From: Armatimonadota bacterium
GTDB taxonomy: Bacteria; Armatimonadota; HRBIN16
Assembly: GCA_963677485.1 (NCBI GenBank)
Contig: OY781964.1
Span: 2,304,001-2,368,000, forward strand
Direction of reading: 5' to 3'
DNA length: 64,000 bases
Shown here: in pieces, positions 30,565 to 32,915 of the stretch
Numbering within the stretch: the first letter of the stretch is position 1
How the letters are laid out: each line of letters begins with the position of its first letter
Program-made: the position numbers and the translations under genes
The notes under the pieces: model-generated
What the model was told of the DNA's origin: nothing
The model's database searches: none
The model's input: the letters and a program-made list of their open reading frames with translations, nothing else

Positions 30565-30967
30565 CTAAACCCGCGGCAGTGTGGCGGGCATCCTGCGATG
30601 TGGGTGACCCGCCCCGTGTCGACGGGTTCCATCGCCCCAGGGGGCTCCATCACCCGTCGCTGATTAGATGGCTGCCCGCGTCGCTTCGCTCCTGCAGGCG
30701 CTAGCGGAGGGCCATGCGCCTGCTTGCGGGCTGCAAATACCTAGACGCGCGGTGAGGGAACCCCGTTTAGGGACGCCAGTCCCGTGGGGTGACCAGCCCC
30801 CGGCAGCGTGGCGGACATCCTGCGATGTGGGTGACCGGCCCCGTGTCGACGGGTCCATCCCTATCCGTGTCATCCGTTCCATCCGCGTAATCCGTGGTTC
30901 AGACATGCATCGGCGATCACGGGAGATCGTGTCGCTTACCAGAAGGGCGATTCGCGAATCGCCCCTA
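30565..30967. repeat. Composite repeats (family R2 related) ending in the REP gggcgattcgcgaatcgccc-CTA
   Basis: The gcggtgagg..agggacgccagtcccgtggggtgacc block is shared with 58661-59890; the same REP occurs uninterrupted at about 59570-59593. Confidence 0.75.
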
Positions 30968-30980
30968 GTACGCTATATAT

Positions 30981-31180
30981 GGTGAGCTCCCCGGACACCA
31001 AAAGCAGTCGGGGAGCTAATCTCACCCCTTAGCTGGGGGTGAAGGAGAAGGATTGGATGCCGGAACCGCCCCTGGTGGAAAACACCGTGACGTAGATAGG
31101 CATCCTTCTCCCAATCAACCCATATCGAACAGTATCTTGGGAGAAAACCCCGTGTTCGCTAGGCTGATTTGGTTGATTGC
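30981..31180 (+). ncRNA. IS110 bridge RNA
   Basis: 5' hairpin; target loop AACCGCCCCT (31064-73)/ACGTAG (31090-95) closed by ggatgcc/ggcatcc; donor loop ACAGTATCT (31129-37)/GCTAG (31158-62) closed by caatcaacc/ggttgattg; ends approximate. Confidence 0.85.
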
Positions 31181-31212
31181 ACCATCAATCACTACCAACT
31201 GGAGATTACCAC

Positions 31213-32505
31213 ATGCACGAAGTTGAAGACAAAATCTACATCCATTATGTCGGGATCGACATCTCGAAATTGACGTTTGACGCGTCTGTATTAGGTTCAT
31301 CGCACAAGCCGATAGACCATAAGGAGTTCAAGAACAACAAGGCCGGATACAAGGAGTTGTTGTCATGGGTGAAGAAGCTTACCCGAACTCCCGCCTTGTA
31401 TGCGGCTGAAGCCACCGGGCCTTACAGCCGACCGCTGCTTGATTACCTCTACGAGCACCAGCACGATGCTGTCCAACTGGAGCCAAAACGGGTTCTCTAT
31501 CACCGCAAAGCCAAAGGCTGGGAACAAAAGACGGACTGCTCTGACAGCGTGCTAATCGCTGACTATGTGAAAAGTCACAATGTCTCACTCTATGTCCCTC
31601 GTCTAGCATGCTATGATGCGCTTATTGGTTACACCAATGACCGCCGTATGCTGGTGCAACACAGACAGGCGATCGCCCAGCGCCAAAGCTGTCGGCTTAC
31701 GCGGAGCACAGTGCTGGACGAGATGATCGCTTTTCATGACATGGGCATCAAAAAGCTTGATGTTCAGATCAAAGAGCTTGTGATGAGTTCACCGCAGATG
31801 ACCGAAGATATGGCTCTGCTGAAGAGCATTCCGGGTATCGGCGACGTCACAGCAAGCTATTTCCTTGCGAAAATCGGTGATGCTAAACGATTTGAAACAT
31901 CGAAAGCGGTCGCGCGCTATTTCGGAATGAACCCCTGCCCGCAACGGTCAGGAAGCTGCAAGACATACGACGGCTCCATATCCAAGATGGGTGACCGATA
32001 TATGCGGACATTACTCTACTGTGGATCGAGCACTGTGGTGAAGATGGTCAACGGTAAGTCGAAAAAGCTTGGCCAGAGCATGCACGACTTCGTGAAGGAA
32101 CTGCAGCATCCGAATTTGGTAAAGAATCCCAATAAGAAACCGAAGTCCAAGCGAGTTGTCCGGTGCGCAATCATGCGCAAGCAGCTGGTGCTCATGTGGT
32201 CGGTATTAATCAGCCGTCAGCCATATGATCCAAACTTCGGCATCGAACAAGCTTCAAATGCGGCCAACCAGCAACCGCTGACCGACGCGAACGGACATGT
32301 CCAGGATCGTGCCGGAGCGGCCCATGATATAGCCGGTGTAGGCAATGATCCTGGGCTGGACGTGAGCGTTCCAAGACGGGGATGCGTGGATGGAAATCCC
32401 ACCAATGAGCCCACTCCTGCCGGCGGTGGTCGGCCCGCATCCCGAAACCGGCCATCGCGCAGTCGGGTGGGCAACAAACCGAGGGTTCTGACACCAGTAT
32501 CCTAG
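31213..32505 (+). CDS. IS110 family DEDD recombinase/transposase
   Basis: YVGIDISK, EATG, KTD..D, SIPGIG, QRSGS (catalytic Ser), ISKMG.R..R..LY; GGAG RBS. Confidence 0.95.
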   Translation: MHEVEDKIYIHYVGIDISKLTFDASVLGSSHKPIDHKEFKNNKAGYKELLSWVKKLTRTPALYAAEATGPYSRPLLDYLYEHQHDAVQLEPKRVLYHRKAKGWEQKTDCSDSVLIADYVKSHNVSLYVPRLACYDALIGYTNDRRMLVQHRQAIAQRQSCRLTRSTVLDEMIAFHDMGIKKLDVQIKELVMSSPQMTEDMALLKSIPGIGDVTASYFLAKIGDAKRFETSKAVARYFGMNPCPQRSGSCKTYDGSISKMGDRYMRTLLYCGSSTVVKMVNGKSKKLGQSMHDFVKELQHPNLVKNPNKKPKSKRVVRCAIMRKQLVLMWSVLISRQPYDPNFGIEQASNAANQQPLTDANGHVQDRAGAAHDIAGVGNDPGLDVSVPRRGCVDGNPTNEPTPAGGGRPASRNRPSRSRVGNKPRVLTPVS

Positions 32506-32915
32506 CTGCGGCAGTCTGCCGATAGCACGCATCGAAGCATAACGATATCTTTCGAAGCCACGAAGATGTCGCACGTCCGTTCGCGACTCCGAGCGTCATG
32601 TGAGGTGCTACGGACCAACTGATGCCATCTGAGCCTGTTTCTGTCGCGGATCCAGGTTTGGTCTATATGCCACAAACATCACATTAACGTTATTCTACGT
32701 GGTCTAGAGCCAGTGTCTGATATTCAGGTCCAAATCCCCAGATTTGCCCCTGGGGACTTGACAAAAGCCACAGTATCTATGTGGCCCCATGCGGGCTGCA
32801 ACGCACTGTATCCCGCGTATCCCCCCAATCTATGCAGGAAACACGGCCTTGCATAGGGAACACTAACCACAACAACACGCCCCATCGGGGTGTGAAACGA
32901 GGGGGATGCACATAG

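Follow-up and report, generated by a model that had tools for sequence, protein, structure and literature searches.

The window, a 64,000-nucleotide stretch of contig OY781964.1 from an Armatimonadota bacterium, very probably carries a functional IS110-group insertion sequence, moving in the manner of IS621 through recombination that a bridge RNA guides (Table 1). Judged from its sequence, this element (here called A) is intact and recently active and inserts beside a repeated DNA hairpin; it is a new, probably active member of its group. A genome-wide copy comparison gave 12 full-length copies with 99-100% identity and common ends. All 12 start with AGTACGCT and finish with CACAGTAT between two CT dinucleotides, and the left end shows no differences among them. 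An earlier note on this DNA had named copies with different ends as evidence against its own reading; none of the 12 differs. Terminal inverted repeats are absent: the two ends are not inverted relative to each other, and the 2-nt CT core is found at both junctions of every copy.

The recombinase matches PF01548 (N-terminal DEDD RuvC-like domain; E = 1.8e-21, all four acidic residues present) and PF02371 (C-terminal Tnp domain, Ser then Gly; E = 4.4e-22) in Pfam. It also matches the structures of IS621 (8wt6) and ISCro4 (9t56, E = 5e-26). Residues D16, E66, D108 and D111 were aligned with D11, E60, D102 and D105 of IS621, and S246-G247 with S241-G242 (IS621 numbering from PMC11208158). The DEDD plus Ser recombinase and the CT core read by the earlier note are both present, and the distant lineage it proposed holds by sequence: the protein shares about 30% identity with IS621 and ISCro4, and among the 120 homologues listed 7 are at least 41% identical and the others listed at most 36%. 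The closest listed proteins (P0001-P0005) are 61-95% identical. For ortholog mining the element is useful as a further natural bridge-recombinase system, well documented and from a lineage remote from those already studied.

Table 1. Features of the IS110-group element and its target in the window.
Feature	Position	Strand	Basis or remark
Target hairpin, REP-like, GC-rich and palindromic; 3′ arm forms the left target	30945..30964	+	copy flanks
CT core, left copy	30965..30966	+	CT at both ends, 12/12 copies
IS110-group element	30967..32776	+	1810 bp without core; 12 copies, 99-100% identity, identical ends
-10 box TACGCT of predicted circle-junction promoter	30969..30974	+	TTGACA, 17-nt spacer, TAyGCT, 5/5 elements
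Predicted bridge RNA	30981..31179	+	fold and covariation; 5′ end inferred from promoter
Bridge RNA 5′ hairpins (predicted)	30985-31017 and 31022-31042	+	fold
Target-binding stem-loop (predicted)	31044-31111	+	fold
Left target guide including CT-matching bases	31064..31073	+	string match and copy/sister comparison
Right target guide ACGTAG and two handshake bases (AT)	31090..31097	+	string match; handshake positions per PMC11208158
Donor-binding stem-loop (predicted)	31112-31179	+	fold
Left donor guide ACAGTATCT	31129..31137	+	equals right end plus core, 9/9
Right donor guide GCTAG and two handshake bases (GC)	31158..31164	+	pairing; sister compensatory change
Ribosome site GGAG	31201-31204	+	upstream of recombinase gene
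Recombinase gene, 430 aa	31213..32505	+	PF01548 and PF02371; PDB 8wt6 E = 2.5e-28; invariant D16 E66 D108 D111 S246 G247
Conserved long RNA hairpin, 45 pairs, in the region coding for the C-terminal extension	32264..32393	+	conservation, fold, covariation
Right end, 271 nt, non-coding; small conserved hairpins include 32735-32756	32506..32776	+	alignment
-35 box TTGACA of predicted junction promoter	32758..32763	+	invariant in 5/5 elements
CT core, right copy, followed by right target ATGT	32777..32778	+	string check and copy comparison

Predicted bridge RNA and its guides

The left non-coding end is predicted to fold with a minimum free energy of -88 kcal/mol (z = -3.45), and none of 200 shuffled sequences was as stable. 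The architecture is that of the IS621 bridge RNA, as the earlier note had proposed, with 5′ stem-loops followed by two stems with internal loops. That note's two internal-loop hairpins were recovered by fold and covariation, while its single 5′ hairpin proved to be two small ones. Changes on both sides of a pair were found in 11 of the 54 pairs, versus 2.2 ± 1.2 after shuffling and 0-2 in slid controls. Helices 1, 3, 4, 5, 7 and 8 are kept and hold 10 of these 11 changes; the alignment of the sister group is poor at helix 2 and at the outer donor stem. The alignment holds 6-7 sequences in two deep groups, so that few independent covariation events are counted. The DNA relatives in the scans were the group at 41-43% identity and more distant ones, with P0001-P0005 left out. 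Among 100 distant IS110 loci, the covariance model R2 matched four, each time directly upstream of the gene. The Rfam search returned two matches at chance level and no matching family; no bridge-RNA family was therefore usable.

All strings quoted in the earlier note were found where it had placed them. The left donor guide is identical over 9 of 9 letters to 32770-32778, and GCTAG (31158-31162) pairs with the CTAGT of the rejoined left end through one G-T wobble. In the target loop, AACCGCCCCT agrees with the left flank AATCGCCCCT (30957-30966) at 9 of 10 letters, and ACGTAG (31090-31095) pairs with CTATGT (32777-32782), again with one G-T wobble. The sister elements B and C carry T for A in the left end and, to match it, A for T in the right donor guide. 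In elements A, B and C the first handshake base, read by eye, pairs with position 7 of the partner DNA, adenine with donor T7 and guanine with target C7; the second, also by eye, pairs only in the target loop of element A. These comparisons support the fit of all four guides and the position-7 handshake to an IS621-type scheme as given in PMC11208160 and PMC11208158.

A conserved hairpin in the 3′ part of the recombinase gene

The earlier account of the element had overlooked two features, a right arm of unusual length and a second conserved RNA hairpin. This hairpin is rod-shaped, has small internal loops only, and lies in the DNA coding for a 90-aa C-terminal extension. Its conservation could instead stem from selection on the protein, through a C-terminal domain with a function, or from an ancient exchange among IS lineages, a reading that we regard as unlikely. 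The frame is open through the stretch in all five elements and several residues are invariant in 8 proteins, as protein constraint would have it; an exchange between A and B is possible because both are in one genome. Third codon positions, however, are 77% identical here versus 17-55% elsewhere, and the sense frame shows no synonymous excess (0.16 versus 0.41 just upstream). Over the 45 pairs 96.7% of cells are paired, compared with 21-39% in slid controls, and 6 pairs carry two-sided changes against 1.3 ± 1.0 after shuffling. The fold is unusually strong on the + strand alone (z = -3.9 and -5.0 versus -1.0 and -1.9), and the extension itself is predicted to be disordered, with pLDDT of 21-33 from a shallow alignment.

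Conserved RNA structure is thus the preferred reading of this stretch. Within the host genome the hairpin model matches only 14 element copies, and an origin as a genome-wide repeat was rejected on that basis. In the phylum sample the model matched 2 of 151 genomes, and it matched 0 of 100 distant IS110 loci; by these searches the hairpin is particular to the clade of A. An antisense gene over the hairpin was also rejected: one minus frame is uninterrupted in four of the five elements yet meets a stop in L098, and synonymous changes are not in excess in any frame. Pairing of the hairpin or the right end with the left end gave chance words only, the donor guide aside, the duplexfold output not being meaningful at such lengths.

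We take the hairpin to act in cis on the recombinase mRNA, either as a stability or processing signal or as an autoregulatory binding site. More tentatively, it may possibly serve the transposition cycle as a second functional RNA module. One form of this would be a site that holds the new recombinase on its own transcript for loading of the bridge RNA in cis, another a double-strand-RNA processing switch that keeps recombinase output down; in either case the C-terminal extension would come mainly from reading through the RNA. Surveys of IS110-associated RNAs, as described in bioRxiv 10.64898/2026.10.21.760802, cluster intergenic sequence, so that an RNA in a coding region would be missed. The element leaves the picture of the IS110 mechanism unchanged, and the intragenic hairpin is the only unexpected item; should it regulate or assist recombination, it would represent a new accessory component of bridge editors.

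Target repeat and genomic copies

Read from the copy flanks, the natural target consists of the 3′ arm of a GC-rich repeat hairpin and the CT-AC that comes after it. The same class of palindrome lies to the left of 10 of the 12 copies, and the other two are flanked by other GC-rich inverted repeats. A regular expression for the hairpin class gave 69 matches with both strands summed, each palindrome being counted twice. The 9-nt left target agrees with the guide at 9/9 letters in six copies, 8/9 in five and 6/9 in one. CTAC follows on the right side in 11 of 12 copies, the sole exception being the copy in the window, and the consensus target fits the guide better than that copy's own target does, a sign that the agreement exceeds chance. 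The full 14-nt target predicted from the guides has no exact match; allowing one mismatch gives 2 sites and allowing two gives 35. For the 12-nt form, a single unoccupied site matches exactly. Two repeat sites that read CT-AGTACG, as though a left end came next, were rejected as element remnants, with no element behind them and unique sequence at that point; they resemble variants of the flank that belongs to the repeat.

The presence of a GC-rich stem-loop 5′ of the core in all 12 targets of A and most targets of the sister elements would also suit a protein that mainly picks its target by reading the shape of the repeat, the left-end RNA being a mere 5′ leader that controls translation as in ISPpu9. 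Precedents are ISPpu10, for which a target stem-loop is reported to add a second layer of specificity (bioRxiv 10.64898/2026.03.19.712850), and ISPpu9, for which a structured, translation-inhibiting 5′ leader is described (PMC12288879). We consider this combination highly improbable, as a leader predicts neither donor guides that match the element's own ends nor guide letters that track target letters over five element types. These types (A, B, C, L096 and L098) differ in left target, and each guide agrees with its own sites at 8.0-8.75 of 9 letters versus 4.0-7.0 for the sites of others, with one tie (B sites and the L098 guide). Recognition by RNA match and a structural gate are compatible and can coexist. 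Programmability of the guides is supported solely by the way guide and target vary together in nature across the sister elements; the 12 insertion sites together with two sister elements resemble a natural reprogramming experiment.

We give almost no credence to a dead relic copied by duplication of genome segments with leftover loop matches: a 16-bp frameshifting deletion in 2 of the 12 copies and contigs of two isolate runs with neither circle nor empty site would agree with it, but the flanks differ at all 12 insertions with exact element ends, the copies show just 6 single-site differences besides that one deletion, and ten ORFs are intact with all catalytic residues. The full ORF is present in the window copy and nine others, in keeping with the apparent intactness claimed earlier. 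The contigs of both runs hold the integrated form, with no junction-spanning contig. One join that "goes back" with intervening letters was rejected as a circle junction, being the flank of another copy that enters a repeat. Contigs from RNA libraries cover 30943-32022 and come from a relative about 94-95% identical; they are possibly DNA-derived, and contigs cannot show RNA ends.

Predicted junction promoter and relation to known systems

The motif TTGACA-N17-TAyGCT arises only across the joined ends and stands at the same offsets in the five elements compared. As motif evidence only, the predicted promoter has 9-10 of 12 consensus bases, the -10 box of A having just 3 of 6. On the + strand of the integrated copy no promoter-like site was found, nor anything comparable at the integrated junction. 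We infer the following cycle, including transcription, circle, catalysis and reprogrammability. The element would be excised as a circle, and the joining of right and left ends over the CT core would create a sigma-70-type promoter (TTGACA, 17 nt, TACGCT). From this promoter an RNA of about 200 nt would be made and then the recombinase mRNA. The left donor guide and GCTAG in the donor-binding loop would read the joined element ends, and strand exchange at CT by the DEDD/Ser recombinase would insert the circle.

Among the closest known systems is IS621 of Escherichia coli (PMC11208160, PMC11208158, PDB 8wt6), which shares with A a DEDD RuvC-like domain, a coiled coil, a Tnp domain with catalytic Ser-Gly, and a CT core. 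Its left-end RNA likewise has a 5′ stem-loop, after which come the target-binding and the donor-binding internal loops; the 5′ sides of the loops read the bottom strand (9-10 nt) and the 3′ sides the top strand (5-6 nt). Handshake bases after each 3′ guide, a promoter split over right and left ends, and a target within a repeated palindrome are further likenesses in these accounts. ISCro4 (PDB 9t56) has the same domains and the same aligned catalytic residues. Unlike both, the element studied here has the low protein identity given above, two small 5′ hairpins, other guides, another host lineage, a disordered C-terminal extension whose coding DNA holds the conserved hairpin, and a long non-coding right end. 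The left end is long, at 246 nt, but so is the right end, which measures 271 nt in A and reaches 340-374 nt in the sisters; the IS110 group is described with short right ends (PMC11208160).

ISPpu10 and ISPpu9 of Pseudomonas putida are also IS110 family elements inserted beside the GC-rich stem-loop of a repeated intergenic REP (bioRxiv 10.64898/2026.03.19.712850; PMC12288879), and a CT core is reported for ISPpu10 as well (bioRxiv 10.64898/2026.03.19.712850). Accessory RNAs are known in the family: those described for ISPpu9 are the antisense Asr9 and, on a separate MITE, Ssr9 (PMC12288879), whereas the element here has an intragenic hairpin. The circles of ISPpu9 are described without a hybrid promoter, and a conserved one is predicted here.

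The right arm of A holds no target-like or donor-like loop besides the end itself, and all four guides lie in the left end. In the IS1111 group, the guide RNA (seekRNA) lies in the right end and subterminal inverted repeats are long. A long right arm with structured RNA downstream of the catalytic core is shared with that group, but the rod hairpin in the arm of A has no target or donor match. The omega-RNA of TnpB overlaps the 3′ end of its own gene, and there too a transposon nuclease gene has a structured RNA within its 3′ coding region. This likeness is an analogy only: no guide lies beside the hairpin in A, and the hairpin is known here as part of the gene sequence only. A check for subterminal inverted repeats found AGC and GCT beside the donor in A, while the repeats of the sisters are different or partial and in another register.

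Element A and its recombinase

By every defining feature readable from sequence, the short right end excepted, the insertion sequence in the window, element A, is an IS110-group element of the IS621 type. A short right end is described for the group (PMC11208160), whereas that of element A measures 271 nt; if counting begins where the conserved core stops, the right arm is about 540 nt. From homology, we infer that element A may be transcribed, excised, catalytically active and reprogrammable.

A DNA search of its own 5.22-Mb genome returned 12 full-length copies of 99-100% identity and one diverged relative. 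The ends proposed in the earlier note proved uniform, as all 12 copies start with AGTACGCT, end with CACAGTAT and have CT on either side. Because these near-identical copies share ends and CT flanks, element A, excluding the shared core, measures 1810 bp, and its multiplication is recent. Variation among the 12 copies amounts to six single positions and one 16-bp deletion, and none of it falls in the left end. The deletion, equivalent to window 31651-31666, is common to two copies (L011 and L012) and frameshifts the recombinase gene. The bridge RNA is intact in both, and they could be movable in trans. Neither the circle junction nor an empty site was found in the contigs of two isolate runs, which do contain the window insertion.

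The recombinase contains both PF01548 and PF02371, and its residues 10-277 align with the structures of IS621 (8wt6, E = 2.5e-28) and ISCro4 (9t56, E = 5e-26). Residues D16, E66, D108, D111, S246 and G247, all invariant across eight relatives, lie opposite IS621 D11, E60, D102, D105, S241 and G242 (numbering of PMC11208158; that of PDB chain 8wt6 is shifted by two). In sequence space, this recombinase is isolated. Among the best 120 of 768 homologues, seven share 41-95% identity with it and the others at most 36%, and at E <= 1e-40 it was found in 2 of the 61 related genomes searched, its own and one of the same genus.

Guides and target sites

A sequence check found every string quoted in the earlier note in its place, including the guide and flank words collected in the table.

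Features of element A (window positions)
Feature	Position	Strand	Remarks
Left flank AATCGCCCCT	30957-30966		compared with target-loop word
Predicted junction promoter, TACGCT	30969-30974		17 nt from TTGACA once ends are joined
Target-loop word AACCGCCCCT	31064-31073		compared with left flank
Right target guide ACGTAG	31090-31095		compared with right flank
Donor-loop word ACAGTATCT	31129-31137		repeated at 32770-32778
Right donor guide GCTAG	31158-31162
Recombinase ORF	31213-32505		430 aa, GGAG 8 nt upstream of ATG
Intragenic RNA hairpin	32264-32393	sense	45 bp, 3' coding part of recombinase gene
Predicted junction promoter, TTGACA	32758-32763
Right flank CTATGT	32777-32782		compared with right target guide

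The left flank is a palindrome of the class GGGCG-N-TTC-G/T-CGAA-N-CGCCC in 10/12 copies and another GC-rich inverted repeat in the remaining two; the right side reads CT-AC in 11/12 and CT-AT in the window copy. Agreement of the 9-nt left target with the loop word is complete (9/9) in six copies; five copies score 8/9 and one scores 6/9. By these counts the window copy occupies a slightly mismatched site rather than an ideal one. Repeats of the palindrome are dispersed, with 69 regex matches in the genome counting both strands. For the full 14-nt target predicted from the guides, no exact unoccupied match exists; allowing one mismatch gives 2 and allowing two gives 35. ISPpu10 is reported to insert beside a stem-loop at its target (bioRxiv 10.64898/2026.03.19.712850), and ISPpu9 into REP sequences (PMC12288879).

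Sister elements with recombinases 41-45% identical to that of A provided a natural comparison of guides and targets. Element B is present in the same genome as one whole and one split copy, element C in the sister genome as nine matches (eight insertion sites compared with both flanks), and L096 and L098 are further types on two metagenome contigs. Their left ends can be aligned with that of A, and their left targets are unlike those of A; the C target, for example, is another palindrome, terminating GGGTCATCC-CT, and the C loop word is GGGTCATCCCT. When the five guide types were scored out of 9 against 24 sites, the own guide was the best fit for each type (8.0-8.75 on the diagonal, 4.0-7.0 off it), except that in a single case, B sites against the near-identical guide of L098, the scores were tied. 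The right target guide ACGTAG is common to A and its sisters, and CTACG comes next in 7/8 C sites, 2/2 B sites, L096 and L098. On the donor side, the left end begins TGTA in B and C versus AGTA in A, and the right donor guide is ACAAG versus GCTAG, a change that, at the level of sequence, is compensatory. For IS621, the handshake is defined as involving position 7 of the other DNA (PMC11208158); read by eye, the base following each 3' guide makes this pair in A, B and C.

Several smaller observations concern the sites. One of the best unoccupied targets, with one mismatch over 14 nt, lies at C1:2167447 of the same genome, 136 bp past the copy at 2165502-2167311. At two sites outside the window, C1:2010701 (+) and C1:2851063 (-), the target hairpin is followed by CT-AGTACG with no element behind it, AGTACG being the first 6-7 bases of the left end of element A. 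Elsewhere the flank of the repeat itself reads CT-ACGTACGC, of which this seems to be a variant, and the left end of element A therefore resembles its preferred right target. The left flank of the window copy also contains short repeats other than the target hairpin (30715-30793 and 30863-30905), where contigs are 20-70x as deep as in the unique right flank and have many loose ends; these are further dispersed repeat families. The split B copy is interrupted by an insertion of ~2.56 kb, ~630 bp into the element (L015 ~2058 to L013 ~938).

Predicted bridge RNA and junction promoter

The 246-nt left end folds with an MFE of -88 kcal/mol (z = -3.45), and 0/200 shuffles fold as well. Its two internal-loop stems carry the guide words as the earlier note had described, while the single 5' hairpin of that description is replaced by two small ones. 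Over seven sequences, two-sided changes were observed in 11 of the 54 pairs of the A fold, against 2.2 +/- 1.2 in 500 shuffles and 0-2 with slid partners; the reference structure derives from one of the aligned sequences, and few independent events are counted because the sequences fall in two deep groups. Conservation is good in the helices of the 5' hairpin, in both stems of the target loop and in the inner stems of the donor loop; the second small hairpin and outer donor stem are shifted in register in the sister-group alignment. A covariance model built on both loops gave full-length matches at 4/100 distant IS110 loci (E = 1.6e-6 to 1.3e-3), whose proteins share 24-27% identity with that of A. 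These matches all end between a few and ~40 nt ahead of the gene match; two weaker matches had E = 0.1 and 0.85. No Rfam 15 family matched the left-end RNA.

When the ends are joined in silico, the site that most resembles a sigma-70 promoter spans the junction (see table). The four sister elements tested share these boxes and their offsets, the -10 reading TATGCT, and no promoter-like site was found on the + strand of the integrated copy. IS621 is likewise reported to have a promoter formed across its joined ends (PMC11208160). Such a promoter would place the start of the bridge RNA near 30981, in agreement with the earlier note.

Contigs of two biofilm RNA libraries (X15 and X16), which may derive from DNA and in which RNA ends are not readable, cover 30943-32022 of a relative ~94-95% identical. 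Its target-loop changes fall within window 31063-31091 and include 31091 C>T, which alters the right target guide. A similar hairpin flank adjoins this copy.

A conserved hairpin within the recombinase gene

A DNA search of A against B matched only two stretches. One, at element positions 70-214, is the bridge RNA; the other, at 1198-1428, lies in the part of the gene coding for a C-terminal extension absent from IS621 (326 aa). Between A and C, third codon positions are 77% identical at this stretch versus 17-55% elsewhere, and there is no synonymous excess in the sense frame over the hairpin (0.16 versus 0.41 in the preceding 60 nt). RNAalifold renders the stretch as one long hairpin, with pairing in 96.7% of cells over 45 pairs in six sequences (slid controls, 21-39%) and six pairs changed on both sides (1.3 +/- 1.0 in shuffles). 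That the sense strand is the structured one is indicated by three G-U pairs, all invariant, and by the folding energies (z = -3.9 in A and -5.0 in C on the + strand, -1.0 and -1.9 on the - strand). Frames for an antisense gene over the hairpin were examined, none of them convincing.

The tail encoded here is predicted to be disordered: with an alignment of 8 sequences, AlphaFold folds the core and leaves residues 342-430 without secondary structure at a pLDDT of 21-33. A covariance model built for the hairpin matched only the 14 element copies in the own genome, 2/151 genomes sampled from the phylum and 0/100 distant IS110 loci, and the hairpin is, on these searches, specific to the clade of element A. 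No pairing partner was found in the left end. The IS110 literature examined describes no such hairpin, in a search not aimed at it, and it may already be published. In all elements compared, the stop codon sits shortly 3' of the hairpin. Our best guess is that the hairpin is a putative cis element of the recombinase mRNA.
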